28,639 bases of DNA from Kineosporiaceae bacterium (GTDB lineage Bacteria > Actinomycetota > Actinomycetes > Actinomycetales > Kineosporiaceae), in assembly GCA_052038585.1 (NCBI GenBank), contig JBQGCR010000189.1, positions 1-28,639 on the forward strand, written 5' to 3'. Below are positions 9,342-28,528 of this stretch, one piece after another. Both the position numbers and the translations under genes were made by a program. The stretch's first letter is position 1, and every line of letters begins with the position of its first letter. Under the pieces are notes generated by a model. That model was not told where the DNA came from. It worked only from the letters and a program-made list of their open reading frames with translations, and did not search any database.

Positions 9342-10589
9342 TCATGATCGCAGAGCGCCGGACGGCTCAGCTCCACCTGCGTCACCCTCCTGTCCGGCGT
9401 GGCTGGTACGGCCGAGAAGCTCCACAGCGCGGAGGGTCACGGTGGAACGGGTCACGGGCAGGCCTTCTGCGGCCAGCTGCCCGCGGGCGCGTCGCTGCAG
9501 CACCACGCGCAGACCACCGACCTCCGCCAAGACCGCTTCGAGGTCGGCGACATCCGTAGCTGCAACGCCACCGGTAGCGGAAAGTCCCGAGCGCTGCGCG
9601 GCCGGTGCGGTGTCCCACCACGGACCGGGACACCGCAGACGTGCAGGACTGCGGGTTGCGGGGTCCGCGGCGAGTGCGTGCAGGGCCGGGATCGCTGCCG
9701 CGGCCGGCAGGCCGTGATCGAGGATGGCGTCCGCGACCACGTCCGTCAGCCGCCCGGAGATCCCACAGGCCGGCAGGCAGGCCGTGACGGCGTCGCAGAT
9801 CGGCGCAACGGGCGGCGACGTCGACCAGGTCGCTGACACCCAGGAGGGCCAGCATCTGCGCCCGCCGCCCGCTCCGGCGGTCGAGCGGCGGCGTGCCGTG
9901 CGGATTCTCAACGCCGGCGTCCCTGGCATCGGGTGCCGTGGAGGAGGGGCGGGGAGGAGGTGTGTTCTCGGTCAAGAACTCTGGGTTGGGCCGCGCCGGT
10001 GCGGCCACCCTGGCCGCACCCGTGCGGCCAGGGGTAGCCGCATCCTTGCGGCCACCCCTCCCCCGCGTCGCCCGGTCCGTAACCCCTGAGCGGGTGGCGC
10101 GGACCAGGTAACTGTTGGTCAGGTTCACTCCGTCCCGGCAACGGCGGGTCACCTCGACCGCCCCGATCCCGACCAGCTCCCTCAACGCCCTGTCAACGGA
10201 GTCGACGGACTTCTTCCGCAGCCGGTCGGCCAGGGTTCGCCGCGACGGCATCCGCCGGCCCGAGGACTGGCCGTACCTCAGCAGCACCGCGTACAGCCCG
10301 ACCGCGGCGTCGGAGATGTCGGCGTCCAGGACCCATTCCGGGACGATCGCGAACCGCTCCTCCAACAGCAGCGCAGCCGCATGCCGGCCGGTGTCCCCAG
10401 CGGCGTCGTGCCGGTCCGCCGGTTCGAGGTCGTCGACGTGGTCACCGGTCTGCGTGCGGGACGGGACGGCATCTGCCGACACGTTCCAGCGCTCGCCGGA
10501 CGGCGGGGGATGCGTTCTTCGAGGTCGTTGACGACGGGGGGCTCGAGGGGTTCGACTGGGCGTGGCAGGGCGAGCGAAGGGGTGGGCAT
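9342..10589 (-). pseudogene. Winged-HTH replication-initiator-like protein, copy 1, with two opposite frameshifts
   Basis: Colinear with the intact paralog at 26916-28265 (FAIVPEWVLDA.ISDAAV.LYAVLLRYG...SVDRAL.ELV; DPATRSPARL.CPGPWW). One base missing in the G5 run at 10505-10509 and one extra in the C3 run at 9762-9764; total span 1248 bp = 416 codons; GGAGG RBS. Confidence 0.8.
9989..10053. repeat. Three 18-bp palindromic iteron-like units inside rep copy 1
   Basis: GGCCGCGCCGGTGCGGCC (9989-10006), GGCCGCACCCGTGCGGCC (10012-10029) and AGCCGCATCCTTGCGGCC (10036-10053), separated by 5-6 nt C- or G-run spacers. Confidence 0.8.
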
Positions 10590-10659
10590 CCGGGCCTCCA
10601 GCAAGGGGTCCGGCGGCACACCACCCCCGACCCGGCCGGCCCCGCAGGAGCGGCAGGCG

Positions 10660-10807: not shown

Positions 10808-10851
10808 CTGAAATCGGAAGGCTTGCGGATCGACCCCGCCCCTGGCCACCA
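10808..10851 (+). mobile_element. att site 1: degenerate 3' half of tRNA-Phe(GAA)
   Basis: CTGAAA-TCGGAAGGCTTGCGGATCGACCCCGCCCCTGGCCACCA; differs from att2 by one missing A and 4 substitutions; no D-arm or 5' acceptor strand upstream. Confidence 0.85.
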
Positions 10852-10853
10852 CA

Positions 10854-10982: not shown

Positions 10983-11153
10983 TCTCCGGGGCAATCCTGC
11001 GTCACTGCCCGACATAGCGCTCTTCAGCGGCCTCTGGCGGGTCAGTGTCGCCAGGGAGCCACCCGGCATAACCACGGATCTGCGACGCACCCGTGCGGCC
11101 TCTGACTCCTAGCCCCGGCCTACCGACTAGCGCCGAATTGCTGCCTCAGGACA

Positions 11154-13159: not shown

Positions 13160-13177
13160 GCTCTCCATCCCCATTGA

Positions 13178-13234
13178 TGTACTCAGCAGTACAGGAATTG
13201 GGATGAGAGTGGGCCCGACAGGGGCGGATGTCAA
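13178..13234 (-). promoter_or_regulatory. Housekeeping-type promoter and downstream operator for the Rieske operon
   Basis: TTGACA (13229-13234) -N17- CACTCT (13206-13211) on the minus strand; palindrome TGTACT-CAGC-AGTACA (13178-13193) between the predicted TSS and the RBS. Confidence 0.55.
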
Positions 13235-13253
13235 TCCCCTGCCTGCCGGCCGA

Positions 13254-13829
13254 TCAGCGAACGATGCTCGGCAGGATGAGGTCCACGACGCGCGCCGGCC
13301 ATGCCGGGTCCGCCCAGCCCCGGCCCGCGAGGTGGTCCGCGTACAGCGCTCCGAACATCAGGCTTACGACGGCCTCGACGTCACAGTCGGCCGCGACCTG
13401 CCCCGCGGCGATCCCCCGCCGAAGCACGTTCGTGCACTGCTCGCGCCGGGGAAGAATGGTGCTTTCGCGCACGATCCGGAGCAGCTCTCCATCGGTCGCC
13501 TCATCGACCAGGCAACTGCCGATGATCGTCATCCCGCGCACGTCGACGTACTGCCGCCGCATCGTGTCCAGGACCGCGACGAGGTCGGTCCGCAGGTCGC
13601 CCGTCACGGGCGGAAGCTCCGCCAGTCGCAGATGTGCGAGCGCGGCACCGACGAGATCCTCCTTGCGGCGCCACCGGCTGTACACGGTCATCTTCGAGAC
13701 GCCCGCGGCCGTCGCCACCTGGTCCATGGTGAACGCGGGACCTTCTGTGCCGAGCAGGTCGAGTGCGGCCTCGAGGACGGCGCGGTCCTTGCCGGGATCT
13801 CGCGGTCTTCCACGAGTCGTTGCAGCCAC
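13254..13829 (-). CDS. TetR/AcrR family transcriptional regulator
   Basis: GRPRD...VLEAALDLL...FTMDQVATAAGVSKMTVYSRWRRKEDL HTH; C-terminal PVTGDLRTDL pattern. Confidence 0.95.
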   Translation of the reverse strand: MAATTRGRPRDPGKDRAVLEAALDLLGTEGPAFTMDQVATAAGVSKMTVYSRWRRKEDLVGAALAHLRLAELPPVTGDLRTDLVAVLDTMRRQYVDVRGMTIIGSCLVDEATDGELLRIVRESTILPRREQCTNVLRRGIAAGQVAADCDVEAVVSLMFGALYADHLAGRGWADPAWPARVVDLILPSIVR

Positions 13830-13865
13830 CCGCGGATGGTACGCCCCTTGCGGAGACCAGGAACC

Positions 13866-13905
13866 TGTGTCATCGTCACACCGCTACGTTCATCAATTGT
13901 TACAT
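13866..13905. promoter_or_regulatory. Candidate PaaX-type bipartite operator upstream of the hydrolase
   Basis: TGTGTCATC at 13866 is identical to the left half-site at 21112; imperfect partner TGTTACAT at 13898-13905 (25-nt spacer). Confidence 0.4.
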
Positions 13906-13927
13906 CGACTCACACCGGGGTGAGCTC

Positions 13928-14647
13928 ATGAGCAGCACCGATCCCTTCGTTCTCGTCACCGGCGCCTGGCACGGCGGCTGGGGGTGGCGGCCGGTCGCCG
14001 AGCACCTTCGGGCTGCCGGCCACCGGGTCTACACCCCGACGCTTCCCGGTCTCGCCGACGGCGACGACCCCACGGGTCTCACCCTCGCCGATACCGCCCG
14101 GGCCGTCGTGGACCTGGTCGTGGGCGAGGACCTCCACGACGTCCGGCTCGTGGGGCACAGCTGGGGCGGATACGTGATCACTGCCGCGGCTCCCGCTCTG
14201 GCCGACCGGCTGCGCAAGCTCGTCTACTGGAGCGCCTTCGTGCCCGCCGAGGGCAAGTCGCTCTTCGATGAGGTCCCGCCGCACTACCAGGACCTCTTCC
14301 GCGCGGTGGCCGGGGCATCCGGCAACAACACCGTGACCCTGCCGTTCGAGGTCTGGCAGCAGGGCTTCATGAACGATGCGGACGAGGCGGCTCAACGCAT
14401 CGTGCACTCTTTGCTCGTGCCGCAGCCGTTCCAGTACTTCACCGAGCCGGTCACTCCGCTGGACCCGGCCTTGGGAATCGAGACGAGTTACCTGCTGTCC
14501 GAGCTCGACCTCGGCCTGCCGCCGGGGGAGTACGGCTGGGAGCGATTCGCCGATCGGCTGAGCGTGCCCGTCCAGAAGGCGCCCGGGAGCCACGAGGCGC
14601 TGTTCACCGAGCCCGCCGGCCTCGCCGAGGCCCTCCGGCAGGCCTGA
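13928..14647 (+). CDS. Alpha/beta hydrolase of the salicylate/methyl-ester esterase type
   Basis: FVLVTGAWHGGWGW oxyanion region, GHSWGG nucleophile elbow, C-terminal GSHE catalytic His; 239 aa. Confidence 0.88.
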   Translation: MSSTDPFVLVTGAWHGGWGWRPVAEHLRAAGHRVYTPTLPGLADGDDPTGLTLADTARAVVDLVVGEDLHDVRLVGHSWGGYVITAAAPALADRLRKLVYWSAFVPAEGKSLFDEVPPHYQDLFRAVAGASGNNTVTLPFEVWQQGFMNDADEAAQRIVHSLLVPQPFQYFTEPVTPLDPALGIETSYLLSELDLGLPPGEYGWERFADRLSVPVQKAPGSHEALFTEPAGLAEALRQA

Positions 14648-14683
14648 GCCAGCGGTCCAGGGTGTGGCGTCGAGGGTCCAAGG

Positions 14684-14715
14684 GGGCGGGTCGTGACGGC
14701 AGTCACGACCAGCCC
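14684..14715. terminator. Hairpin downstream of the hydrolase
   Basis: GGTCGTGAC-GGCA-GTCACGACC, extended by GGGC/GCCC after one mismatch. Confidence 0.55.
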
Positions 14716-14771
14716 TCGCCGTTGGGTCGGAGGCAAGCGGCGTCGGAGGCGCCGGAAAGGCGCACTGCATT

Positions 14772-15608
14772 ATGGGACCCGTGGCTCAACGACCCCGCAC
14801 ACTGGTCCTCGACCTCTTCGGTGACTACCTGCGCTACCTCGACGGCGAAGTGCGGCTGAGTCATCTCACGACGCTTCTCGAGGCCTTCGGTATCGGTGCG
14901 CCCACGACGCGGGTGACTCTGTCCCGGCTCCGGCGCGAAGGCTGGTTCGAGACCGAGCGCATCGGCCGGGAGACGCTCTACCGGCTCACTCCGGGCATGC
15001 TCGGCGTCCTGGACGAGGGGCGCGAACGGATCTTCGCCGCACCCGTGACCCAGTGGTCCGGCACCTGGACGCTCGTCATCTACCAGGTGCCGGAGTCCGA
15101 GCGGCAGGAGCGCAACACCTTGCGCAAGTCGCTGTCGTGGAACGGTTTCGGGGCTCTGACAACGTCCACCTGGCTCGCCCCGGGAGATCGACGGCAGGAG
15201 ACGCGCACCCTTGTCGACTCCCTCACTGACGAGCTCGTAGACGTCCTGGCATGCGCCTCCGAGGGGCTCGAACACGACCGCGACCTCGCCCGCCGCTGCT
15301 GGGATCTCGAGGCGCTGGCACGGCAGTACGCCGAGTTCGTCAGTGACCACACAAGCCTGCTCCGCGCGGGGGCGGAACTATCCGGGGCCCCGGCCCTCCT
15401 GGCCCGCACCGGGCTCATCAGCGCCTATCGCGTCTTCCCCTTCCGGGACCCCAGACTCCCCCCCGACCTCCGGCCGGACCCGTGGCCGGGGGCGCAGGCG
15501 TACGACCTGTTCCGCAGGGTCCACACGTTGCTCGGACCTGCGGCGCGGGCCTACGTCGGACAGGTCGTCGGCGTCGAGCCGCCCGACCCCGGGCCGGCCG
15601 CCGACTGA
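14772..15608 (+). CDS. paaX: PaaX family transcriptional regulator (paralog 1)
   Basis: LVLDLFGDYLR, RVTLSRLRREGW, WSGTWTLVIYQVPE, C-terminal RVFPFRDPRLPPDLRPDPWPG; alternative GTG start at 14781. Confidence 0.92.
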   Translation: MGPVAQRPRTLVLDLFGDYLRYLDGEVRLSHLTTLLEAFGIGAPTTRVTLSRLRREGWFETERIGRETLYRLTPGMLGVLDEGRERIFAAPVTQWSGTWTLVIYQVPESERQERNTLRKSLSWNGFGALTTSTWLAPGDRRQETRTLVDSLTDELVDVLACASEGLEHDRDLARRCWDLEALARQYAEFVSDHTSLLRAGAELSGAPALLARTGLISAYRVFPFRDPRLPPDLRPDPWPGAQAYDLFRRVHTLLGPAARAYVGQVVGVEPPDPGPAAD

Positions 15609-15746
15609 CGGACCCGCGGCACGGCAACATCGGCCCACGGCAGCTCACCGGGGCCGTCACCCTGACACAGCTCGACCTGGCTGGACCTGGCTCGTCAGCG
15701 CTCTCCACGGTTCGTCGACGTCGGACGTTCGGGAGAGGCGCACGGC

Positions 15747-17435
15747 TCAGGACGGCGACAGGCGCCGGACGACGTCCTGACGCAACGCCTTCTTGTCGAT
15801 CTTGCCGACCTTGGTGGCCGGCAACTCGGGGATGACCTCGAGCCGCTCGGGGACCTTGTAGGTGGCCGCACCGGCCGCGAGCACTGCCGCGCGGACATCC
15901 GCGAGCGCGAGTGACGCACCGTCGGCGAGAACTGCGTACAGGCAGACACGCTCGCCGAGCACGGCATCCGGCATCGCCACGGCCGCACACTGCACCACCT
16001 GGGGCAGGCTGCGGTAGACGAGATTCTCGACGTCCTCGGCGCTGATCTTCTCCCCGCCCCGGTTGATCATGTCCTTGTCGCGGCCCTCGACGACGAGGTT
16101 GCCGTCCGGCCGCCGCCGGACGATGTCGCCGCTGCGGTACCAGCCGTCAGGGGTGAAGGCTCGGGCGTTCTGCTCCGGGGCGCGGTAGTAGCCGCGCGGC
16201 GTGTAGGGACCTCGGGTGAGCAGCGAACCGGCGGTGCCGTCGGAGACGTCCACGCCGAACTCGTCCACGATGCGCACCTCGTCGCCCTCGCTCATCGGAC
16301 GGCCCTGGGTCGTACAGACGACCTCGTCCGGGTCGTCGTCACGGGTGTAGTTGAGCAGCCCCTCGGCCATGCCGAACACCTGCTGCAGCCGGCAGCCCAG
16401 CACCGGCTGCACGGTGCGGGCGACGTCGTCCGCGAGCCGGGCCCCGCCCACCTGCAGCAGCCGCAGGGTGGCCAGCTGCGCGGCCCCGTACTCCTTCGCG
16501 TGCGTGATCCAGCGCTGGGCCACCGCGGGAACGGCCGCCGCGACGGTGACCCCCTCCGCAGCGATGGTGGCGAACACTCGCTCCGGCTCCGGCGAGGGCA
16601 GCAGGACGGTCCGCCCGCCGGCGAGCATCGTGCCGAGCAGGCCGGGGCAGGCGAGCGGGAAGTTGTGCGAGGCCGGCAGCGTCCCCAGGTACACGGCGTC
16701 CGGGCCCAAACCGCAGACCTCCGCGCTGGCCCGGGCGTTGTAGGCGTAGTCGTCGTGCGTCCTGGCGATGAGCTTCGGCAGGCCGGTCGTGCCGCCGGAA
16801 AGCAGGAAGACGGCGACGCTGCGGCTGTCCGGTGCGGCGGCGTCCCAGCGTGCCCGGTGCGCGGCCGCCTCGTCGGCGTCCTCGGGCTCGGCGCACAGTG
16901 CCGTGAGGTCGACGTGCCCGGTGCGCGGCGCGGAGCCGACCACGAGGACGTGCTCGAGGGTCGGGGCGTCCGCCCGAAGCTCGTCGGCGAGCGCCTCGTG
17001 GTCGAAGTCGCGCAGCACGTCCGGCACCGCCACGGCGGCCGCCTCGCTGTGGTCGACGATGTAGGCCATCTCGTGTCGACGGTGCGCGGGCAGGGCCATC
17101 ACCGGGACGATCCCGGCCCGCAGGCAAGCCAGCGTGAGGACGACGAACTGCCAGCAGTTCGGCAGCTGGACGACGACCCGGTCCTCGCGCCGCAGCCCGA
17201 GCTCGTCGGTCAGGCGGGTGGCGAGGGCGTCGGCGCGCGCCGTGAGGGAGCGGTAGGTGAGGCGCACCTCGTCGTCGACGAGGGCCACCGCGTCAGGGCG
17301 TCCGTCGGCGACGGCGAACAGCTCGGTGCCGAGCGAGAGGCCGCGCCACCACCCGCGTGCGGCGTAATCGCGGGCGAGGTCGTCGGGCCAGGGGACGACA
17401 CCGTCGCAGAGCGGGCTCACGGGCGTGCGGCTCAC
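15747..17435 (-). CDS. sdgA: Salicylate/2,3-dihydroxybenzoate-AMP ligase (DhbE family), SdgA-like
   Basis: LLSGGTTGLPKLIARTHDDYAY, PASHNFPLACPG, QQVFGMAEGLLNYTR, RGPYTPRGYYRA, KVGKIDK; context matches the Streptomyces sdgABC order. Confidence 0.9.
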   Translation of the reverse strand: MSRTPVSPLCDGVVPWPDDLARDYAARGWWRGLSLGTELFAVADGRPDAVALVDDEVRLTYRSLTARADALATRLTDELGLRREDRVVVQLPNCWQFVVLTLACLRAGIVPVMALPAHRRHEMAYIVDHSEAAAVAVPDVLRDFDHEALADELRADAPTLEHVLVVGSAPRTGHVDLTALCAEPEDADEAAAHRARWDAAAPDSRSVAVFLLSGGTTGLPKLIARTHDDYAYNARASAEVCGLGPDAVYLGTLPASHNFPLACPGLLGTMLAGGRTVLLPSPEPERVFATIAAEGVTVAAAVPAVAQRWITHAKEYGAAQLATLRLLQVGGARLADDVARTVQPVLGCRLQQVFGMAEGLLNYTRDDDPDEVVCTTQGRPMSEGDEVRIVDEFGVDVSDGTAGSLLTRGPYTPRGYYRAPEQNARAFTPDGWYRSGDIVRRRPDGNLVVEGRDKDMINRGGEKISAEDVENLVYRSLPQVVQCAAVAMPDAVLGERVCLYAVLADGASLALADVRAAVLAAGAATYKVPERLEVIPELPATKVGKIDKKALRQDVVRRLSPS

Positions 17436-19489
17436 GGTGCGGGCTCCTTGTCGACGATGAGGACGGCGTCCAGGGCGAGCAGCCCGTCCGCCGTCACGCG
17501 CAGCGGGTTGATCTCGACGTCCCGGACGTGCGGGCGGGCGTGCAGGAGGTCGCCGAGCGCGACGAGGACCCGGCCGACGGCCGCTCGATCCGCGGCGGGG
17601 CCGCCGCGGAAGCCGTCGAGCAGCACTGTCGCTCGCAGCTGGTCCAGCAGGGCAGCGGCAGCGGTGGCGTCCAGCGGTGCCGGCGCGAGCGCGACGTCGT
17701 CCAGGGCCTCGGCGACGACGCCGCCGAGGCCGACGAGTACGACCGGCCCGAACACGGGGTCGCGGGTGGCCCCGACGACGAGGTCGATGCCCGACGGGGC
17801 CATCGTCTCCACGAGGAACCGCCGGGCGCCGGCGGCCTCGAGCGCGTCCAGGGCTGCGTCGAGCGCCGCGGCGTCGCGCACGCCGAGGTGGACGCCGCCG
17901 ACGTCGGACTTGTGCGTCACCGAGGCGTCCAGCAGCTTGACCGCGACCGGGCCCGGCAGCTCCGCCAGGGCTCGGTGGGCCTCGTCGCGGTCGGCGCAGA
18001 CCCGGCGCGGAGGCGTCGGCACGCCAAGCGCTGCCAGCAAGGTCTTGGCCTCGTCCTCGTCGAGGTCACGGCCGGGGACGTCCGGCGGCGCCGGCGCCGC
18101 GGAGGGCGGTGTCTCCCGCCGGCGGGCGTGCCGGGCGCGGGAGTCCTCGACGAGGGCGGCCACAGCACTGGTCAAGGCGGCGGGGCCGGTGACGGCGGGC
18201 ACGCCGAGCGCGTGCAGGGCCGCACGCTGGCGCGCGACCTCGGCCTGCGGTCCCCCCAACCCGACGACGAACGGCGCCCCGCCGGCGGACGCCGCGCTGG
18301 CCACAGCCGCGGGCAGGTCGAGGGCGTCCGGCTCGCTGAGCGCGTAGACGCTGACGACGTCGACACCCGGGTCGGCGGCCACGGCGACGAGGACGTCGTC
18401 GAACCCCGCTCGGGGCCGGCCCGTGTCGACCGGGTTCGCCTGGTACGTCAACGGCGGCAGCACCGCGGACACGCCCGCCCGGGTCCGCTCGTCGAGCACG
18501 GGCAACTGGACGTCGCGGCCGCGCAGACCGTCGACGTGCAGCAGGCCGGGGCCGGCCTGCGCCGTCACGACCCCGACCCCCGCCGCGGGCGAGGCGGGCA
18601 GCCGGAAGGCCGACAGCGCGGTGACGGCGTCGACGAGCTCGCGCTCGTCGGCCACGAGAACGGCACCGGCGGCGCGCAGGACGGCCCGGGTCGTCCGCCA
18701 CGAGGTGGCCAGCGCGCCGGTGTGGGACCGGGCGAAGTCAGCGACGTCGTTGCGCCCGACGACGAGCGCCACGACCGGCTTGCGCGTGCTGAGGCGACGG
18801 ACGGCCGCCGCCAGCCGCGGCCCGTCGGCAACGGACTCGACGTGGAGGGCGACCGCCGCGGTGGCCTCGTCGTCCTCGAGGTACTCCAGGACGTCGGCCG
18901 CGGACACGTCCACGGCGTTGCCGAGCCCCACGGCGAGCGAGACGCCCACGCCGGCCTCGGCGAGCGCGAAGGCGAGCGCGTGATTGACGCCGCCGCTGGC
19001 CGCGACGACGGCGACCGGCCCCGCAGCGAGGGCCGTCGTCCCGGGGACGAACGAGGCCGTGAGCGCCCGGCCGGGCACCACGAAGCCGGAGGTGTTGGGG
19101 CCGAGCAGCGTCGTGCCGGTGCCCAGCGCCGCGGCGACGAGGGCCGCCTGGTGCGCGATCCCGTCGCCGCCCGCCTCGGCGTACCCGCCGGAGCAGACCA
19201 GCGCGGCCCGGACGCCCGCCCCCGCCACCTGCGTCACGACCGCCGCGGACGCGGCCGCCGGGACGCATAGGACGGCCAGGTCGAGCGGGTCACCGGCGGC
19301 GTCCGCCGCCTCGGCGACGCTCGCGTAGCGGCCCGCTCCCGGGTCGGCGTCCCGGGCATTGACCCCGACGACGGTGCCGGGGAACCCGGCCAGCGACCGG
19401 AGCATGACGGCGCCCAGCTTGCCCGGGTCGCGGGACGCCCCGATGACGACGATCCCGCGGGGCGCGAAGAGCGCGCCGAGCCCGCTCAC
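17432..19489 (-). CDS. sdgB: ADP-forming acyl-CoA synthetase family protein (CoA-binding + ligase + ATP-grasp), SdgB-like
   Basis: VIGASRDPGKLG CoA-binding motif, LLGPNTSG, SHTGALA with the phospho-His, HKSDVGGVHLG and EINPL ATP-grasp; GTGA overlaps at both ends. Confidence 0.88.
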   Translation of the reverse strand: MSGLGALFAPRGIVVIGASRDPGKLGAVMLRSLAGFPGTVVGVNARDADPGAGRYASVAEAADAAGDPLDLAVLCVPAAASAAVVTQVAGAGVRAALVCSGGYAEAGGDGIAHQAALVAAALGTGTTLLGPNTSGFVVPGRALTASFVPGTTALAAGPVAVVAASGGVNHALAFALAEAGVGVSLAVGLGNAVDVSAADVLEYLEDDEATAAVALHVESVADGPRLAAAVRRLSTRKPVVALVVGRNDVADFARSHTGALATSWRTTRAVLRAAGAVLVADERELVDAVTALSAFRLPASPAAGVGVVTAQAGPGLLHVDGLRGRDVQLPVLDERTRAGVSAVLPPLTYQANPVDTGRPRAGFDDVLVAVAADPGVDVVSVYALSEPDALDLPAAVASAASAGGAPFVVGLGGPQAEVARQRAALHALGVPAVTGPAALTSAVAALVEDSRARHARRRETPPSAAPAPPDVPGRDLDEDEAKTLLAALGVPTPPRRVCADRDEAHRALAELPGPVAVKLLDASVTHKSDVGGVHLGVRDAAALDAALDALEAAGARRFLVETMAPSGIDLVVGATRDPVFGPVVLVGLGGVVAEALDDVALAPAPLDATAAAALLDQLRATVLLDGFRGGPAADRAAVGRVLVALGDLLHARPHVRDVEINPLRVTADGLLALDAVLIVDKEPAP

Positions 19490-21096
19490 GGGGTGCCCTC
19501 GCCCACGGCGACGAGGTCGGCCCGGCCGGACAGGACGGCCGTCAGGGCGTCGTCGTCGCCGCCGTCCGGGCCGTCGACGAGCACGCTCACCAGACCGTGC
19601 TCCAGCCGCGCCTCCTCCGTGAGCAGCCGGCGCGTCAGAGCCGTGCCGCCGTGGACGGCGACCAGGCAGGCACCGGACGCCGCGGCGTCCGCGAGCGCAC
19701 GGGACGCCGCCGCGATCCCGGCCTCCGACTCCGGAGCCTCGACGTCGACCCCCCACGGCCCGGATCCGTCCGACTGCCGCATCTGTCTGGAACCGTTGCC
19801 GTGCAACGGGACGACGAGCCCGTCGAGGACGGCGGCCCCTGCCCGGACGACGGCGGTCCGCCGGGCGACCCGGTGCCCGGCGACGACGATGGCGCTGTCG
19901 AGCGGCTCGGCTCCGTGCAGGCCGCGCCAGCGGGCGTGGGCGGTGTCGACGAATGCGGGATCGCGCCGCCTCAGCTTGGCGTCAGTGAGGCTGCGCGTGA
20001 GGAAGTGGTGGGCGAACTGCCACGGCGGCAGGGCATCGTAGGAGCGGCCGAAGTGCTCCCACCAGGCCAGGCTGGGGCGGGCGGCGCCCTGGATCCGGGC
20101 GACCTGCGGCTGCCGCACGGCCTCGTACCTCTCGAGGGCGGCGTCGACGTCGTCGGCGCCGTCACCGGGGTGCTCAGCAAGGGCCGCGACGAGCGCGACG
20201 GCGTCCTCCATGGCCATTTTCGTGCCCGAGCCCACGGAGAAGTGCGCGGTGTGCGCCGCGTCGCCGAGCAGGGCGACGGCGGTGCCGCCGACCCGGTGCC
20301 GCCAGCGCGATGAGCCCCGGGTGCGGAAATTGGCCCAGCGGGAGTTGTTGACGAGCAACGGATGCCCGTCGAGCTGACCGGCGAACAGCTGCTCGAGGTA
20401 CGCGCGCGAGACCTCGTCGCTGGGCCCCGGCGGCTGCGTGACGTCGAAGGCGTGCAGCCCGGCGGCGCGCCACGACGCCTCGTCGGTCTCGACGATGAAG
20501 GTCGACCGTCCGCCGCCGATCGGATAGCCGTGGACGGCGAAGACGCCGTGCGGGCCGCGCTCGTGGACAAACGTGAGCCCCTGGAACGGGTACGTCGTCC
20601 CCAGCCAGATGAACTTCACGGCCGACGTCACAAGGGTCGGCTCGAAAACCTGGCCGAACCGGTCGCGCAGCTGGGAGTTCGCGCCGTCCGCCGCCACGAC
20701 GAGGTCGTAGCCGGCACCCAGCAGGTCCTCCGGTGCGACCGGGGAGGCGAAGCGGACGTCGACGCCGGCGTCGGCGGCACGTTCCTGCATCAGGCGCAGG
20801 AGCGTGCGACGTTCCACTGCGGCCATGCCGTTGCCCCCGCACCGCCACTGCTCGCCGCGGAGGCGCACCTCGATCGAGTCCCAGTGCACGCCGTGCTGCT
20901 CGAGCGCGGTCCGCAGCACGGGGTCGGCCTCGTGGATGCCGTCCAGCGTCGCGTCGGAGAAGACGACACCGAAGCCGAAGGTGTCCTCGGCCCGGTTGCG
21001 CTCGAAGACCGTCACCTGGCGCGCGGGGTCGGCACGCTTGGCCAGCGTGGCGGCGAACAGGCCGCCAGGGCCGCCGCCGAGGACGGCTATCCGCAT
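19486..21096 (-). CDS. sdgC: Salicyloyl-CoA 5-hydroxylase-like flavin monooxygenase (SdgC/AbmA family) with a shortened C-terminal domain
   Basis: MRIAVLGGGPGGL, TFGFGVVFSD, VAADGANS, LLGDAAHTAHFSVGSGTKMAMEDA; 536 aa ending in SGRADLVA. Confidence 0.88.
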   Translation of the reverse strand: MRIAVLGGGPGGLFAATLAKRADPARQVTVFERNRAEDTFGFGVVFSDATLDGIHEADPVLRTALEQHGVHWDSIEVRLRGEQWRCGGNGMAAVERRTLLRLMQERAADAGVDVRFASPVAPEDLLGAGYDLVVAADGANSQLRDRFGQVFEPTLVTSAVKFIWLGTTYPFQGLTFVHERGPHGVFAVHGYPIGGGRSTFIVETDEASWRAAGLHAFDVTQPPGPSDEVSRAYLEQLFAGQLDGHPLLVNNSRWANFRTRGSSRWRHRVGGTAVALLGDAAHTAHFSVGSGTKMAMEDAVALVAALAEHPGDGADDVDAALERYEAVRQPQVARIQGAARPSLAWWEHFGRSYDALPPWQFAHHFLTRSLTDAKLRRRDPAFVDTAHARWRGLHGAEPLDSAIVVAGHRVARRTAVVRAGAAVLDGLVVPLHGNGSRQMRQSDGSGPWGVDVEAPESEAGIAAASRALADAAASGACLVAVHGGTALTRRLLTEEARLEHGLVSVLVDGPDGGDDDALTAVLSGRADLVAVGEGTP

Positions 21097-21110
21097 CGGG
21101 CATCCCTTAT

Positions 21111-21150
21111 ATGTGTCATCTATGAGCCGGACGGCGCTACAGTGACACAT
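21111..21150. promoter_or_regulatory. Candidate PaaX operator between divergent sdgC and paaX
   Basis: Perfect 8-bp inverted repeat ATGTGTCA-N24-TGACACAT; widely spaced half-sites resemble the E. coli PaaX operator architecture. Confidence 0.55.
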
Positions 21151-21243
21151 GTGCGTCGACGGCCGCAAGACCGCGTGGCCTCGGACGCGCGGTGACCACC
21201 CGGCGTCCAGGACAATCACGGGCGGGGCCGCGAGAGGAGGACG

Positions 21244-22047
21244 ATGAAGCCGCGGTCGGTGGTGTTCGACCTGTTCGGGGACCATCTGCGCTACCTCGCC
21301 GGCGCCGTCCGGACCCAGAGCCTCGTGGCACTGCTCTCCGCGTTCGACATCGGGGAGCCGACCGCCCGGATCGTGCTCGCGCGGCTGCGGAAGGAAGGCT
21401 GGCTGGAGACGCGACGGTCGGGCCGGGAGGCGGTCTGGGCCGTGACGCCGCGCGCCCTGGGGATGCTCGACGACGGGCGCGCGCGCATCTTCGAGCGGGC
21501 GCGTGCGCCATGGGACGGCCAGTGGCGGATGGTCATCTACACCGTCGCCGAGCAGGACCGCGCAGAACGCGAGCAGCTCCGGCGGGCCCTGGCCTGGCTC
21601 GGGTTCGGCCCCCTCGCGGCGTCGACGTGGCTCAGCCCGCACGACCGGCTCGACGACGTCGAGAAGGCGCTTGCCGAACACACCGCCGTCCGGGCGGACC
21701 TCTTGACCTGCCGGTCCCGCGGCCGCGCGGCCGACCTCGACATGGTGTCCCGCTGCTGGGACCTCGACACCCTTGCCGGGGACTACCTGGAGTTCGTATC
21801 CAGCGTGGACCGCCTGCCCTCCCCCACCGACCTCGCCCGGCTGCCTGGGCCCGAGTCGCTGCGCGTCGGGGTCCGCCTCGTCGCCGACTACCGCCGGTTC
21901 CCCTTCCGCGACCCCGACCTGCCCGCCGACCTGCTGCCGCGAGGCTGGCCCGGGACGCACGCCCACGAGCGGTTCATCGCGGCCCACGAGGCGCTCGCCG
22001 GCCCGGCTCGCCGGTTCGTCAGCGAGGTCCTCGAGCGGGACGGCTGA
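21244..22047 (+). CDS. paaX: PaaX family transcriptional regulator (paralog 2)
   Basis: MKPRSVVFDLFGDHLR, WDGQWRMVIYTVAE, LGFGPLAASTW, RRFPFRDPDLPADLLP; GAGGAGG RBS. Confidence 0.93.
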   Translation: MKPRSVVFDLFGDHLRYLAGAVRTQSLVALLSAFDIGEPTARIVLARLRKEGWLETRRSGREAVWAVTPRALGMLDDGRARIFERARAPWDGQWRMVIYTVAEQDRAEREQLRRALAWLGFGPLAASTWLSPHDRLDDVEKALAEHTAVRADLLTCRSRGRAADLDMVSRCWDLDTLAGDYLEFVSSVDRLPSPTDLARLPGPESLRVGVRLVADYRRFPFRDPDLPADLLPRGWPGTHAHERFIAAHEALAGPARRFVSEVLERDG

Positions 22048-22069
22048 CGCGGCAAGGCTTTCCGGCCGC

Positions 22070-22843
22070 TCAAAGCGCGTCCGTGACGGCATCCGCCGCG
22101 GCGGCCAGGGCCGCGGCGATCCGGGGCACGCGGTCCTTGCGGTACCGCACCGACGGCATGGAGACCGAGACGGCCGCGACCGTGTCACCGTGACGGTCCA
22201 CCACGGCGCGCCCCACGGCGGCGAGCCCGCGCTCGGACCGCTCGAGGTTGATGGCGATGCCGGTACGCCGGACGGCGCGCAGCTCGCGGTGCAGGCGGGG
22301 CAGGTCCGGCCGGTCGGCCGCCCGGTCGGCGAACCGTTCCGGCGCGTAGAGCGCGTCGACCCGCTCCGGGCTGAGAGCGGCGAGCATGACGAGGCCGCCG
22401 GTGACCGTGTGGGCGGGGAAGACCATGCCCTCGCGGTTGCCGACCCGCAGCGCTTGGTCGCACTCGACCGAGGCGATGAAGCGCGCCGTCGTACCGATCC
22501 GGACCGACAGGTTGCACGTCTCGCCGAGGGTGTCGACGAGCAGGCGCATCGGTTCCAGCGCCGCCGCCCGCAGCCGCGCGACGTCCGACGAGGAGCGGCC
22601 CGAGAGCTCGAGCACCGGGCCGGCCCGGTAGACCCGGTCCTCGCCCTGCACGGCGAAGTCGCGGTACACCAGCGCCTGGAGCAGCCGGTGCGCCGTCGAC
22701 CGCGCGACCCCCAGTCGCTCTGCAGCGGCAGAGACCGTGATCGGCCCCTCGACCTGCAGGACGACCGCGAGTCGCAACGCGTGGTCGACACTCGTCACCG
22801 CGTACGCAGGCGGCGTCTTGAACGGGGCAGACGCGCGGGCCAC
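22070..22843 (-). CDS. IclR family transcriptional regulator (GenR/NagR-like) of the gentisate operon
   Basis: CAGGAGG RBS before GTG 22843; SVDHALRL...LGVARSTAHRLLQAL HTH; TVTGGLVMLA and AVSVSMP effector domain; divergent from gentisate dioxygenase. Confidence 0.92.
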   Translation of the reverse strand: MARASAPFKTPPAYAVTSVDHALRLAVVLQVEGPITVSAAAERLGVARSTAHRLLQALVYRDFAVQGEDRVYRAGPVLELSGRSSSDVARLRAAALEPMRLLVDTLGETCNLSVRIGTTARFIASVECDQALRVGNREGMVFPAHTVTGGLVMLAALSPERVDALYAPERFADRAADRPDLPRLHRELRAVRRTGIAINLERSERGLAAVGRAVVDRHGDTVAAVSVSMPSVRYRKDRVPRIAAALAAAADAVTDAL

Positions 22844-22857
22844 CGATCCTCCTGGTG

Positions 22858-22872
22858 TTCTGCTGTGCAGAA
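22858..22872. promoter_or_regulatory. Candidate IclR operator
   Basis: TTCTGC-TGT-GCAGAA 15-bp palindrome in the 70-bp divergent intergenic region. Confidence 0.6.
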
Positions 22873-22913
22873 TCGTATGTTCCCGCCGGGGAGCCCGCGA
22901 CGAGCATCGGGGC

Positions 22914-24053
22914 ATGACCGACACGCCGCCGTTCGCCGTCGTCGCCAAGGACGGGCCGGACCAGCCCCCGGTGACGCCGGAGCTCCAGGACCTGTACCGG
23001 GGCTTCGAGAAGGCTCTGCTGATCCCGCTGTGGACCGAGATCGGCGGCCTCATGCCGCACGAACCGGTCTCCAAGGCCTCCCCGCACCTGTGGGAGTGGA
23101 AGACCCTGCTCGAGCTGGCAGGGTTGTCCGGCGAGCTCGTGCCGGTCGGCCGTGGCGGCGAGCGACGGGCGATCGCCCTGGCGAACCCGAGCCTGGGCGG
23201 CCGGCCGTACGCGACACCGACCCTGTGGGCCGCGATCCAGTACCTCATGCCGGGCGAGGACGCCCCCGAGCACCGGCACACCCAGAACGCGTTCCGGTTC
23301 GTCGTCGAGGGCGAAGGCGTCTGGACCGTCGTCGAGCGCGAACCGGTCCCGATGCGGCGCGGCGACTTCCTGCCGCAGGCAGGGATGCACTGGCACGCCC
23401 ACCACAACGCCGCCTCGACGCCCATGGCGTGGATCGACGGGCTGGACATCCCGTTCCAGTACGAGGTCGAGGGCCAGTTCTTCGACCTCGGCCGGGACAC
23501 GCTCACCGAGGCCGAGCACGCGACACCCGAGCGCTCCCGGTCGGAGCGGCTCTGGGGCCACCCGGCTCTCGCCCCGGTGTCTCAGCTCGGGTCCACGGCG
23601 GGCAGCCCGCTGCTCGCCTACCGCTGGGTCGACACCGACGCCGCTCTGACCGACCAGCTCGCCCTCGAGCGCGAAGGCTTCGCAGGCGTCGTCGAACCCG
23701 ACCACGCACTCGTCCGGTACACCAACCCGACGAACGGCGGCGACGTCCTGCCGACGATCCGGACCCAGTTCCATCGCATCGCGGCCGGCGCGCAGACCGC
23801 GCCGCGGCGCGAGACTGGGTCGTCGGTGTACCAGGTCTTCGACGGCTCCGGCCGGGTCACCGTCGGCAGCCACTCCTGGTCCATCACCCGAGGCGACCTG
23901 TTCGTCGTCCCGTCGTGGCAGCCGTTCTCCGTCGTCTCGCAGGCCTCCGCGTCGGACTCCGACTCCGGCGCCCTCGACCTCTTCCAGTTCAGCGACGCAC
24001 CGATCTTCGAGCGCCTCAACCTGTTCAAGTCCGCCACGGAGGACGTCTCGTGA
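22914..24053 (+). CDS. nagI: Gentisate 1,2-dioxygenase (bicupin)
   Basis: GRGGERRAIALANP, AAIQYL.PGE.AP.HRHTQNAFRF, HWHAHHN, WIDGLDIP, GDLFVVPSW, LFQFSDAPIFERL. Confidence 0.93.
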   Translation: MTDTPPFAVVAKDGPDQPPVTPELQDLYRGFEKALLIPLWTEIGGLMPHEPVSKASPHLWEWKTLLELAGLSGELVPVGRGGERRAIALANPSLGGRPYATPTLWAAIQYLMPGEDAPEHRHTQNAFRFVVEGEGVWTVVEREPVPMRRGDFLPQAGMHWHAHHNAASTPMAWIDGLDIPFQYEVEGQFFDLGRDTLTEAEHATPERSRSERLWGHPALAPVSQLGSTAGSPLLAYRWVDTDAALTDQLALEREGFAGVVEPDHALVRYTNPTNGGDVLPTIRTQFHRIAAGAQTAPRRETGSSVYQVFDGSGRVTVGSHSWSITRGDLFVVPSWQPFSVVSQASASDSDSGALDLFQFSDAPIFERLNLFKSATEDVS

Positions 24054-24913
24054 AGCTCGCCACCGCCCGCCTGACGTCCTCGACGGGCTCCCGGACGGCC
24101 GCCGTCCGCGTCGAGGGCGACACCCTTGTCGAGCTGCCGTTCACCGACGTCGGCGCGCTCCTCGCGACGCCCGGCTGGCAGCAGGCGGCCTCGGCCGCCG
24201 GGCCGGAGCACCCGACGGACGGAGTGACCTTCGCACCCGTCGTTCCCGCACCTTCCAAGGTCGTCTGCGTCGGCCTCAACTACAAGAACCACATCCAGGA
24301 GATGGGCCGGGACCTGCCCGAGCACCCCACGCTGTTCTCGAAGTTCGCCGACTGCCTCGTCGGCTCGACCGACGACGTCGTCCGGCCCGCCGAGACGACC
24401 GAGTTCGACTGGGAGGTCGAGCTCGCCGTCGTCGTCGGCACACCCGACGCGACGCCGGTGCGGCGGGCGGACGACGAGGCCGCCGCCACGGCGATCGCCG
24501 GGTTCACGGTCCTCAACGACGTGACGTGCCGGGACTGGCAGTTCCGCACCCGGGAGTGGCTGCAGGGCAAGAACTGGGACTCCACGACCCCGGTCGGCCC
24601 CTGGCTCGTCACCCCGGACGAGGTCGGCGGCGTCCGGCCCTCGCTGAAGGTCACCTGCTCCGTCGACGGCGTCGTCATGCAGTCCGACACGACCGGCGAC
24701 CTGCTCTTCGACCCCGTCGACCTCGTCAAGTACGTCTCCACGATGGTCCGGCTCAACCCCGGCGACGTCATCGCCACCGGCACCCCCGGCGGCGTCGGCC
24801 ACGCCCGCAAGCCCCCGCTGTACCTGGCCGGCGGGGAGCTGCTCGTCACCGAGGTCGAGGGCATCGGCCGGCTCGAGAACCGCGTCGTCACCGACCCGGC
24901 CCGGAGCGCCTGA
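24050..24913 (+). CDS. nagK: Fumarylacetoacetate hydrolase family protein (fumarylpyruvate hydrolase)
   Basis: VCVGLNYKNHIQEMG, DWEVELAVVVG, LNDVTCRDWQ, WLQGKNW, GDVIATGTPGGVG; GTGA overlap with the dioxygenase. Confidence 0.92.
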   Translation: MKLATARLTSSTGSRTAAVRVEGDTLVELPFTDVGALLATPGWQQAASAAGPEHPTDGVTFAPVVPAPSKVVCVGLNYKNHIQEMGRDLPEHPTLFSKFADCLVGSTDDVVRPAETTEFDWEVELAVVVGTPDATPVRRADDEAAATAIAGFTVLNDVTCRDWQFRTREWLQGKNWDSTTPVGPWLVTPDEVGGVRPSLKVTCSVDGVVMQSDTTGDLLFDPVDLVKYVSTMVRLNPGDVIATGTPGGVGHARKPPLYLAGGELLVTEVEGIGRLENRVVTDPARSA

Positions 24914-25566
24914 TGGGCCGCGACCTGCCCGCGGCCCTGTCGTACGTCGCGACCGGGACCAAGCTGTGCGCGGACGCCGTCGCCGGCTTCGACGAGGCCG
25001 CCTTCGCCGCGCCGTCGGCGCTACCGGGCTGGACCCGAAAGCATCTCGTCGCGCACCTCGCGGCCAACGCCGAAGCCCTCATGCGGCTGCTCCACTGGGC
25101 CACGACCGGGGAACGGACCCCGATGTACTCCTCCCCTGCGCAACGCAACGCCGACATCGACGCCGGCGCTCGGCGTCCCGGCGCCGACCTCGCCCGCTGG
25201 TTCACGACGTCCGCGGCCCAGCTCGACCAGACGCTCGCCGCGCTGCCGGACGCCGCATGGACCGCCGAGGTCGTCACCGCCCAGGGGCGCACCGTCCCGG
25301 CGTCCGAGATCCCCTGGATGCGGGCCCGCGAGGTGCTCGTCCACGCCGCCGACCTCGCCACCGGCGTCACCTTCGCCGACCTGCCCGACGGCTTCCTCAG
25401 CGCGCTCGGCAACGAGATCCGCGCCAAGCGCACCGCCGCCGGCGAGGACGTCGAGGGCCTCACCGGGTCCCTCGCCGACGTCACCGCCTACCTCGCCGGC
25501 CGCAGCACGTCCGGAGTCACTGCCCCGGACGGCACGCCCGCCCCCGCCCCCTCCCGCTGGCTGTGA
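24913..25566 (+). CDS. nagL: Mycothiol-dependent maleylpyruvate isomerase family protein
   Basis: [51 protein letters not shown]; TGATG overlap with the hydrolase stop. Confidence 0.9.
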
Positions 25567-25576
25567 AGGACTGGTC

Positions 25577-26837
25577 ATGAGCGAGCGCCCGGACGTCATC
25601 GTCGTCGGCGGCGGCATCGGCGGCCTGTCGGCCGCCCTGTCCTGCAAAGGCATCCGGGTCCGCCTCTACGAGAGGTCCGCCGAGTTCGGCGAGGTCGGCG
25701 CCGGCCTGCAGATCGGCCCGAACTGCACCCGCATCCTGACGACTACGGCCTGCTCGACGAGGCCAAATCCCTCGGCGTGCTGCCCGAGGCGATGGTCATG
25801 AAGGGCGCCACCGACGGCTCCGAGCTGACCCGCCTGGACCTGCACAACCTGGAGAAGACCTACGGCTACCCGTACATGGTCATCCACCGCAGCGACCTGC
25901 ACGGCCTGTTCCTGCATGCTTGCCGGCGCCTCGGCGTCGAGCTCATCACCGACCGGCAGTGCGTCGGGTACGCAACCGGCGACGGCGTCGCATCGGTGAC
26001 GTTCGCCGACGGGACGACCGACACCGCCGAGCTCGTCATCGCCGCCGACGGGCTGCACTCCGTCGCCCGGGGTCGCGCTCGTCGGTGACGAGCCGGTCAA
26101 CTCCGCGTACGTCGCCTACCGGGGCGCGGTCCCGTTCGACCAGGTGCGCGAGAACGACGTCCACGAGAAGGACGTCGTGGTCTACATCGGGCCGCGCTGC
26201 CACTTCGTGCAGTACCCGCTGCGCGGCGGCGAGATGTTCAACCAGGTCGCCGTCTTCCAGTCCCCCAAGGCCCTCGCCGGGCAGGACTGGGACACGCCCG
26301 ACGAGCTGGACGCCGCCTTCGACGGCATGTGCGACCCGATCCAGAAGGGCCTGCCGCTCATGTGGCGCGACCGCTGGTGGCGGATGTTCGACCGTGACCC
26401 GATCACCCGGTCGGTCTTCGGCCGGGTCGCCCTGCTCGGCGACGCGGCGCACCCGCCCCTGCAGTACATGGCCCAGGGCGCGATCATGGCGATCGAAGAC
26501 GGCTGGGTCCTCGCCGAGCACGTCGGCGCCCAGAGCGCCGTCCGCACCGAGACCTCGTCCGGTGTCGACTGGGACACCGCCCTCGCCGCCTAGGAGGCCG
26601 TCCGGCCCGAGCACTGCCGGCGCGTCCTGTCCACGGGCCGTGCATGGGGCGAGCTCTGGCACCTCGACGGCGTGGAACGCCTCCAGCGCAACGTCATCCT
26701 GCGGTCCCGCGACACCTACGACTACTCCTTCACCGACGATCTACGGCCCGACGGCGCTCACCCCCGAGGAGGAACCGTCGCTCTACACGACGATCCCCCT
26801 CAGCTCCGTCCAACTGACGGACGAGACACACAACTAA
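25577..26837 (+). pseudogene. nagX: Disrupted 3-hydroxybenzoate 6-hydroxylase (flavin monooxygenase)
   Basis: Fragments match the Rhodococcus/Corynebacterium enzyme ([68 protein letters not shown]). Frameshifts near 25738 (-1), 26069-26072 (+1) and 26738 (-2); TAG at 26591-26593 where homologs have Tyr. Confidence 0.9.
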
Positions 26838-26845
26838 GGTCTGAC

Positions 26846-26919
26846 CTCGTCGCCATGCAGCAGGGCGACGAGACCGGCCCCTCGTCACCTGGCTCGAGGC
26901 GGTCACCGACGACGTCTAC
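26846..26919 (+). pseudogene. 3'-terminal remnant of a cupin-domain gene
   Basis: With one C added at 26879-26881 it reads LVAMQQGDETGPLVTWLEAVTDDVY, resembling the recalled C-terminus of small cupin proteins (HLAMQEADxxGxxVTWxExVTDxxY); no upstream portion present. Confidence 0.45.
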
Positions 26920-28265
26920 CCGATCTCCGCGTCGCCGGTCGATCTCGACCCAACCACCTTCCCTGCGGCGGTGCCTGAGCGCTGCGCCACCTCGAGAAGG
27001 TCGACGGCGCGGCGGGTGACCGTCCGCCGGGTCACCGGCAGCCCCTCGGCCGCCAGCTGTGCCCGTGCCTGCCGTTGGACGATGACCCGCAGCCCATCGG
27101 CCTCGGCGAGGACCGCCTCCAGACGCGTGACGTCCGTGTCCGGTGCAGCAGTCGGCTCGGCGGGCAATCGGCCCGGCTCCCACCACGGGCCCGGGCAGCT
27201 CAACCTTGCCGGGCTGCGCGTCACCGGATCCGCTGCGACGGCCAGCAGGGCATCGATCGCCCGGTCGGGCGGCAGGCCGCGGTCCAGGACCGCGTCCGCC
27301 AGTACCTCGACCAGCCGTCCCTTCGTCCACAGCCCGGCCGGCAAGCCCTGCTCGTGCCGCCGCCGCACGCAGCGACCCGCCAGCTCGACCAGCCCCTCCG
27401 AGTCGAGGCCGAGCATGCCCAGCACGCGCAGGCCGCGGGCCGTCCCCGCGCTGCCCGGGCCCTCAGGCAGCGGCCTCTGGTGCGTGCCCACCTCGGCCGC
27501 GAGGTCGCGGCGACCGACGGAGGAGGGGCGGGGAGGAGGGCTGTTCTCGGTGAAGAACTCTGGGTCGGGCCGCACCCATGCGGCCACCCCAGCCGCAGCC
27601 CTGCGGCTACCCCTGGCCGCACCCGTGCGACCACCCCAGCCGCTGCGGGAGTGACTCCCCCGGGCACGGCACGCGCCGGACAGCAATGGGTCCTCCGGGG
27701 TGGCCGCAGCCGTGCGGCCACCGTCCTCAGCAGCCCTGTCCGCCGGCATCGGCGCAGGTCCCTTGCGGCGGGTGGAGCGCACGAGGTACCGGTTGGTCAG
27801 GTTCAGGCCGGCCCGTGACCGGCGGGTCACCTCGACCGCACCGAGCGCGACCAGCTCCTTCAGCGCGCGGTCGACGGAGTCGACCGACTTCCGCAGCCGC
27901 CCGGCCAGGGTCCGCCGGGACGGCATCCGCTGCCCGGAGGACTGCCCGTACCGCAGCAGCACCGCATACAGGCGCACCGCGGCGTCGGAGATGGGGGCGT
28001 CCAAGACCCACTCCGGGACGATCGCGAACCGCTCCTCCAGGACCAGCGCACCGGCATGCCTGCGAGTGTCCTGGTCGGTGTCGTGCCGGGCTTTGGACTC
28101 GAGGTCGTCGGTGTTGTCACCGGTCTGTGCGCCGGACCGGGCGGCATGTGCTGGCACGTCACGGCCCTCGCCGGACGACAACGGCAGGCGCTCGCGAAGG
28201 TCGTTGACGGCCGCACGCTCGAGGGGTTCGACTGGACGTGGCAGGGCGGTAGAAGGGGTGAGCAT
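26916..28265 (-). CDS. Winged-HTH replication-initiator-like protein, copy 2 (intact)
   Basis: GGAGG RBS before ATG 28265; 449 aa. N-terminal FAIVPEWVLD...LYAVLLRYG...PSRRTLAGRLRKSVDSVDRALKELVALGAV...NLTNRYLV is the wHTH pattern of phage/element Rep N-termini; repeat-coded low-complexity linker; conserved C-terminal DPVTRSPARLSCPGPWW. Confidence 0.8.
   Translation of the reverse strand: MLTPSTALPRPVEPLERAAVNDLRERLPLSSGEGRDVPAHAARSGAQTGDNTDDLESKARHDTDQDTRRHAGALVLEERFAIVPEWVLDAPISDAAVRLYAVLLRYGQSSGQRMPSRRTLAGRLRKSVDSVDRALKELVALGAVEVTRRSRAGLNLTNRYLVRSTRRKGPAPMPADRAAEDGGRTAAATPEDPLLSGACRARGSHSRSGWGGRTGAARGSRRAAAGVAAWVRPDPEFFTENSPPPRPSSVGRRDLAAEVGTHQRPLPEGPGSAGTARGLRVLGMLGLDSEGLVELAGRCVRRRHEQGLPAGLWTKGRLVEVLADAVLDRGLPPDRAIDALLAVAADPVTRSPARLSCPGPWWEPGRLPAEPTAAPDTDVTRLEAVLAEADGLRVIVQRQARAQLAAEGLPVTRRTVTRRAVDLLEVAQRSGTAAGKVVGSRSTGDAEIG
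27568..27720. repeat. Palindromic iteron-like array inside rep copy 2
   Basis: Units at 27568-27585 (GGCCGCACCCATGCGGCC), 27591-27608, 27615-27632, a partial unit from 27638, and TGGCCGCAGCCGTGCGGCCA at 27701-27720; 23-24 bp period with ACCCC spacers. Confidence 0.82.
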
Positions 28266-28333
28266 CCGGGCCTCCAGCAAGGGTCCGGCGGCACACCACC
28301 CCCAACCCGCTCCGCCCGCAGGGAACGGCAGCT

Positions 28334-28482: not shown

Positions 28483-28526
28483 CTGAAAATCGGAAGGTCG
28501 GCGGTTCGACCCCGCCCCTGGCCACC
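28483..28526 (+). mobile_element. att site 2 (probable attR): exact 3' half of tRNA-Phe(GAA)
   Basis: CTGAAAA anticodon loop, TCGGA 3' stem strand, AGGTC variable loop, GGCGG-TTCGACC-CCGCC T-arm, CCTGGCC-A-CC acceptor strand. The 31 nt upstream cannot supply the GGCCAGG 5' strand or a D-arm, so this is not a tRNA gene. Confidence 0.92.
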
Positions 28527-28528
28527 GC

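Follow-up and report, generated by a model that had tools for sequence, protein, structure and literature searches.

Palindromic repeats inside a rep-like gene of actinobacterial integrated elements: candidate lambda-O-type iterons conserved at the DNA level

The replication origin of phage lambda lies in the middle of gene O and is built of iterons, imperfect inverted repeats of 19 bp that contain G-tracts (PMC7466680). These iterons act as the origin; there are four of them in lambda and six in Stx phages, and an unwinding tract follows the last one (PMC7466680). The original prediction for the DNA analysed here had invoked this precedent of origin iterons within the initiator's own coding sequence. 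RepAM of pMEA300, an integrative conjugative element of Amycolatopsis, binds multiple identical, hairpin-capable repeats inside its gene (PMC2440964). These RepAM repeats are 8 bp long and occupy the 3' end of the gene, where a pC194-like nick site suggests rolling-circle replication (PMC2440964). On the repeat sequence described below, our literature search returned nothing relevant.

The window, i.e. the whole stretch of 28,639 nt that was analysed, is one contig (C189) of a fragmented 4.7-Mb genome with 72.5% GC. It carries two paralogous rep-like genes, 17 kb apart. Like lambda O, their protein has an N-terminal DNA-binding domain, a linker and a C-terminal domain (which serves recruitment in lambda O), and dyad-symmetric repeats with G-tracts lie in the middle of the gene for this putative initiator, their number varying between relatives. 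The lambda-type arrangement of at least three dyad repeats, with a period of about two helical turns and placed between two domains, is found in the family. Unlike in lambda, the units are near-perfect palindromes extending to ~30 bp, the tract that follows the array has just a mild decrease in GC, and the family resides in integrated islands or conjugative elements rather than in phages. Also unlike lambda O, the protein has no Phage_rep_O match (PF04492, none in Pfam at E ≤ 0.1) and no P-like helicase-loader gene is adjacent. The family shares with RepAM an actinomycete integrative element as host and repeats inside the coding sequence, but its units are 16–30-bp palindromes in mid-gene, which sets it apart from RepAM as that system is described.

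The two rep-like genes and their palindrome array

The genes, and the domains of the copy 2 protein, are located as follows.

26916..28280, minus strand: rep-like gene copy 2, intact open frame of 454 aa (HTH_36; phrog_270)
27771..28025, minus strand: winged-helix DNA-binding domain (wHTH), aa 86-170, AF2 pLDDT ~90, recognition helix SVDSVDRALKEL
27453..27770, minus strand: disordered linker that encodes the array, aa 171-276 (from AF2 and GC3)
26976..27452, minus strand: helical C-terminal domain, aa 277-435, AF2 pLDDT 92, all-helical
9357..10604 (about), minus strand: rep-like gene copy 1, frameshifted near 9755-9763

Of the two genes, copy 2 appears to be intact, whereas copy 1 is decayed. 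Copy 1 matches copy 2 in two frames (tblastn HSPs and frame plot), and because of the frameshift near 9755-9763 it is probably a pseudogene; no correction at this place was seen in contig sets of four public straw-metagenome runs. Two of these four sets have a G inserted behind position 10504, so that one frame problem in the copy 1 N-terminus may be an assembly or strain variant.

We found 304 homologs of the copy 2 protein; members of the family are named 'hypothetical' or 'HTH domain-containing' in their sources. The wHTH matches HTH_36 at 7.7e-07, above the cutoff for that family. Among PHROG families it matches phrog_270 'replication initiation protein' (5.1e-11), phrog_186 (DnaD-like helicase loader, 8.4e-07) and, weakly, phrog_678 (replication initiation O-like, 4.4e-04). 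Judged by these similarities, the wHTH belongs with phage replication initiators. Fold comparison (VIA) gave Z 9.7 to Geobacillus DnaB 1-300, 8.6 to the RepA_N initiator 4pta and 8.1 to the N-terminal domain of DnaD (8ojj), and the fold neighbours also include many generic repressors, GntR- and MarR-like ones among them. The domain thus resembles RepA_N/DnaD-like initiators of Firmicutes plasmids and phages in fold, with Z values within the generic wHTH range and with no sequence-level family match. For the C-terminal domain, no fold relatives outside its own family were found in the PDB (VIA best Z 5.7), AFDB clusters or BFVD, and a profile search of PDB sequences gave noise only. The named clusters returned by a language-model search were all C-terminal domains of replication proteins, with weak similarity that makes them leads only.

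The palindrome GCCGCA-N4-TGCGGC, with at most one mismatch, occurs nine times in the window versus 0.47 expected, and none of 100 shuffled windows reached nine; the palindromic array described within the rep-like gene is thus real. Seven of the nine matches fall inside the two rep-like genes. Throughout the 4.73-Mb genome the exact word occurs six times, five of them in these two genes, which are also the only places where the palindromes cluster. Matches at 11084 and 12565, and those on contigs C371 and C601 elsewhere in the genome, were rejected as array members: they are single or unrelated and have no GGGGT flank. The 16-bp cores (no strand is assigned to palindromes) and the tract next to them are as follows, in gene sense for copy 2.

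27703..27718: distal unit, first in gene sense; perfect palindrome in reading frame A (GRxxAA)
27640..27655 (~27640): decayed unit, in 24-bp phase with the cluster, with only the arm remnants GCCGC/TGCGGG
27616..27631: cluster unit with one mismatch in the window (A at 27630)
27592..27607: cluster unit, perfect palindrome, 24 bp from the preceding unit
27569..27584: last unit, perfect palindrome, 23 bp from the preceding unit, in frame B (AAxxRP)
27541..27566: lower-GC tract directly after the array, with a ACCCAGAG-type repeat and coding for PDPEFFTEN (no strand assigned)
9990..10052: copy 1 array of three units (9990, 10013 and 10037; spacings of 23 and 24 bp), without a distal unit

Position 27630 reads G instead of A at full depth in contigs of the four straw-metagenome runs, which makes the 27616 unit a perfect palindrome there. 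As had been proposed, the unit number differs between the paralogs, copy 1 having three units and copy 2 four plus the decayed one. The units also account for part of the length difference between the genes, and they do so exactly: copy 1 lacks the distal unit together with its spacer, a gap of 87 bp or 29 codons, which is one unit-to-unit distance. The array lies in the linker after the wHTH, again in line with the original prediction. Here AF2 pLDDT is below 50 for residues 182-225 (and again for residues 255-273), and the GC3 coding signal is lost over 27520-27760.

The lower-GC tract holds a short direct repeat, ACCCAGAG-N5-ACCCAGAG, which is found past the last unit in many homologs as well and is followed by a pyrimidine run coding for PPPP. 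A phage contig (L123) has a similar repeat, GAACCAGA.

Constraint on the nucleotide sequence across the family

We scanned homologs using one genome per species, which gave 80 loci from Kineosporia, Kineococcus, Quadrisphaera, Acidothermaceae, Dermatophilaceae, Jatrophihabitans, Nocardioidaceae, Jiangellales and others. Among genomes of relatives the gene was found in 12 of 61, often in several copies and often broken. The array is at the same place after the wHTH in about 76 of the 80 loci, while protein identity across the array-bearing homologs is only 41–75%. The question raised with the original prediction, whether homologs keep the palindromes despite divergence of the linker protein, is thereby answered decisively in favour of the palindromes. 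Their arms are invariant and the central N4 is free. Loci have from two to seven units in a recurrent layout, in which a distal unit is followed by a spacer of 30–99 bp (in most homologs, and mostly a multiple of three) and then by units 24 and 23 bp apart. The 18-bp unit first described does not hold, since the conserved word is longer: T occupies position –2 in 94% of units, the consensus is roughly GGGGT-R-core-Y-ACCCC, and in many cases the palindrome of the distal unit reaches 30 bp. No unit was found consistently upstream of the gene across the 80 loci. Just past the array, mean GC is 0.57 over ~20 bp versus 0.72–0.75 elsewhere (52 homologs), in a stretch that also codes for a conserved peptide. 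At one locus (L111) three further palindromes form a cluster of their own ~6.1 kb downstream of the matched gene (anchor +6140 to +6199), which may be a second, diverged gene copy.

The period had been described as no fixed codon multiple. This is wrong for the 24-bp spacing, which is a codon multiple, and right for the last spacing of 23 bp, which is near-universal among homologs and shifts the frame. Upstream units are therefore read as xGC CGC Axx xxT GCG GCx (157 units) and the last unit as GCC GCA xxx xTG CGG Cxx (55 units), so that the same DNA word yields the peptides GRxxAA and AAxxRP. Conservation of the array could in principle reflect selection for a GGRxxAA linker repeat, with the palindrome as a by-product; the motif is visible in the protein alignment, where R189, A192, A193, R218, A222 and R226 are nearly invariant. 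We therefore counted codons in units picked by their peptide alone, i.e. without the DNA pattern, to avoid circularity, and took the rest of the same genes as background. The Arg codon is CGC in 143 of 146 such units (36% in the background) and the Ala codon is GCG in 144 of 146 (34% in the background). The fourth codon ends in T in ~100% of units versus 8.6%, and the Ala of the last unit is encoded by the rare GCA in 48 of 50 cases (96% versus 9%). R..AA peptides from other parts of these genes, taken as a control, have ordinary codons. With synonymous sites fixed, rare codons forced and one DNA word giving a different peptide in the second frame, the codon counts contradict peptide conservation as the sole cause, and we regard the chance of that explanation as negligible. 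Selection therefore acts on the nucleotide sequence, and conservation of the array at the DNA level, as first proposed, is borne out by the codon bias and the two reading frames.

Constraint of this kind could also be placed on a structure. As a single strand, the array stretch folds better than its shuffles (MFE –60.4 kcal/mol, z = –3.15), and the long distal palindromes of many homologs would suit hairpins in mRNA or in transferred single-stranded DNA that serve translation control, processing or single-strand priming. However, the arms are invariant in sequence and not just in pairing: deviations are rare single mismatches and never compensated changes. Because of this, recognition of a specific sequence fits better than a mere hairpin. 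The repeat moreover changes along with the recognition helix of the wHTH (see below), and no T-run for termination was found at the array. Altogether, a hairpin function seems highly improbable.

Phage relatives and genomic context

Proteins on IMG/VR phage contigs share only the wHTH with the family (~50% identity). The contigs range from 54 to 74% GC and carry units of the form GGGGTAGCCGCA-N4-TGCGG(A/C) two or three times, 22–23 bp apart. Those of 54–57% GC encode O-like initiators (phrog_270 at 6e-45) and have GGGGTAGCCGCA-N4-TGCGGA two or three times in the gene, directly after the wHTH, followed by a strongly A-rich tract. A contig of 74% GC has three perfect GCCGCA-N4-TGCGGC units and then an A-rich tract. 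The helix S(V/T)D(S/T)VDRA(L/M)xEL is common to the family and the IMG/VR phage proteins with the same repeat, and CCGCA/TGCGG half-sites are found with every protein that has the S(V/T)D(S/T)VDRA helix. Arthrobacter phages have homologs annotated as 'RepA-like replication initiator', with a helicase loader gene behind them. One of these, Kovu gene 88, has a different recognition helix and stands just before the helicase loader. Inside this gene, at the same place as in the other proteins (L126:2770-2900), there are four GGGTAGTCCC-n-AAAAACGG repeats of ~24 bp (spacings 25, 24 and 23), after which comes an AT-rich tract; the region is likely an unannotated phage origin.

The actinophage RepA-like/phrog_270 proteins (e.g. 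Kovu, Bolt007 and IMG/VR L114-L121) resemble the family in a homologous wHTH (40–52% identical) and in repeats with a 22–25-bp period located in the gene directly after it, and in L114-L121 the repeat core is also the same. They differ from it in their unrelated C-terminal domains, and their genes, unlike those of the family, have a helicase loader behind them and a clear A-rich tract; Kovu differs further in both repeat and recognition helix. Since the same helix goes with the same repeat, and the Kovu helix with another repeat, these comparisons indicate that wHTH and repeat move and diverge as a pair, with different C-terminal domains attached. Lambdoid replicons are known for this modular pattern.

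In the window, each rep-like gene lies close to a partial tRNA gene.

28483..28527, plus strand: tRNA-Phe 3' fragment (att-like), ~200 bp upstream of copy 2
~10808-10853: matching tRNA-Phe 3' fragment, ~200 bp upstream of copy 1

Both copies are transcribed away from their fragment, and the arrangement fits tandem islands integrated at tRNA-Phe. The fragments span the anticodon loop to CCA. An identical stretch of 44 bp lies in an apparently intact tRNA-Phe on another contig of the genome (C974:394-437), and public-run contigs ending at 28483 continue into the tRNA 5' half. A search with ARAGORN for intact tRNA genes found none in the window, nor any up to ~8 kb away from 54 homolog loci; what is present are 3' fragments only. 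No integrase, relaxase or translocase is encoded in the window. The DNA around and between the two copies carries aromatic-acid catabolism and lipid-type genes. Between the copies (11154-26837) there is a gentisate/salicylate-type catabolic cluster, apparently the cargo of the 17.7-kb island, with a Rieske/VanA-like oxygenase, a hydrolase, two PaaX-like regulators, CoA ligases, a bicupin dioxygenase and a mycothiol-dependent isomerase. In contigs of the four straw-metagenome runs, the element had no extra depth over its flanks (assembler depth, a weak measure) and no att-to-att joint was listed; as contigs show presence and not absence, they are a weak test of excision and over-replication.

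Across loci, the neighbours of the rep-like gene are DUF2637, NikA-like or relaxase genes, or cargo, and in Motilibacter a gene for a CHAP-domain protein comes after it. No helicase-loader, primase or partition gene was found beside it among the neighbours examined. Neither the protein nor its neighbours have a ParB/ParA family match, as would be expected of a centromere of the ParB/parS type. Downstream of the gene, no more than 5 kb away and in its orientation, at least 22 of the 80 loci have DUF2637, NikA-like, MobA/VirD2 or TrwC relaxase, or TraG-like genes, with relaxase families in ~12 of them. These mobilization genes place the family with conjugative or mobilizable integrated elements. 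Among the plasmids of PLSDB none encodes the protein (tblastn), and this database thus has no record of a free replicon that carries it. Copies of the gene tend to lie in clusters. Acidothermaceae bacterium B102 (AP028633) has four of them on a single complete chromosome, all oriented alike and spread over no more than 125 kb (2.33-2.46 Mb; L049, L051, L053 and L085), as would be expected if related elements had accreted serially at one site. Pairs of copies on a contig occur in other genomes too (L090/L098, L101/L113).

The mobilization genes raise the possibility that the array is an oriT or relaxosome site and the protein an accessory factor for the relaxase encoded downstream. Inverted repeats are indeed typical of oriT regions. 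However, the same repeat and wHTH are found in phage replication modules that have no relaxase, most loci (both window copies included) have none nearby, and where a nikA-like gene is present the array is 1–2 kb from it and not directly upstream. We consider an oriT role very unlikely.

The array as a candidate origin of replication

Overall, we suggest, with a probability of roughly 65%, that the array consists of lambda-O-type iterons, i.e. binding sites of the protein that is encoded across them and, at the same time, the replication origin of the element; the interpretation given with the original prediction is thus supported. The existence of the array, its DNA-level conservation throughout the family and its travel with one type of wHTH are shown here; binding by the wHTH, origin firing and the role of the C-terminal domain are what we infer. 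In the proposed mechanism, the units would be dyad-symmetric sites for dimers of the N-terminal winged helix, laid in the stretch of the gene that encodes the flexible linker between the two domains. Occupation of the distal unit and of the 24/23-bp cluster by several dimers would lead to wrapping or bending of the DNA, and strand opening would follow in the lower-GC tract that adjoins the last unit. The host replication machinery would be brought in by the C-terminal domain, the outcome being the copying of an excised integrative, mobilizable or conjugative element. The tract at 27541..27566 is a candidate unwinding element, on the grounds of the GC dip there and of the A-rich tract at the same place in the phage relatives. 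There are reservations: the tract is not clearly AT-rich and shows just a mild dip in GC, no loader gene is adjacent, the C-terminal domain is an orphan in fold, and the window has no sign of activity.

The evidence for binding by the wHTH applies equally if the units serve control only, through autorepression by roadblock or handcuffing, and the origin is elsewhere. GntR- and MarR-like repressors among the fold matches of the wHTH are compatible with control, as is the modest GC dip in place of a strong AT-rich tract, and a regulatory role has also been proposed for the intragenic sites of RepAM (PMC2440964). Yet operators are usually located at promoters, whereas the 80 loci have no consistent upstream unit. 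The phage relatives, in turn, are annotated initiators with an A-rich tract directly past the repeats, and in lambda the iterons do act as the origin (PMC7466680). We regard a purely regulatory array as unlikely; control and origin functions are not mutually exclusive.

Returning to the array as iterons and origin, a more speculative extension can be made. The family might be a self-contained 'initiator plus internal origin' cassette at the att-proximal end of actinobacterial islands that often have no integrase or transfer gene, the window being an example. Such islands would be satellites that replicate themselves after excision by a helper, and the C-terminal domain would be a new recruiter of the replicative helicase in hosts without DnaC/DnaI-type loaders. 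We hold this extension to be doubtful.

The principle of iterons within an initiator gene is known and not new; the array itself is well supported and useful. If the iteron reading is true, it gives a working function to a widespread and unannotated actinobacterial protein family, along with a compact one-gene candidate replicon for genera that are poor in tools (Kineosporia, Kineococcus, Acidothermaceae). The family would be an unusually clean case of a predicted array of DNA binding sites that dictates amino acids of the very protein that reads it. The comparison with phages also shows the DNA-binding domain and its predicted sites passing as a single module between phages and integrated elements, with a change of recruitment domain, and the array helps to interpret the tandem tRNA-Phe islands of the window.
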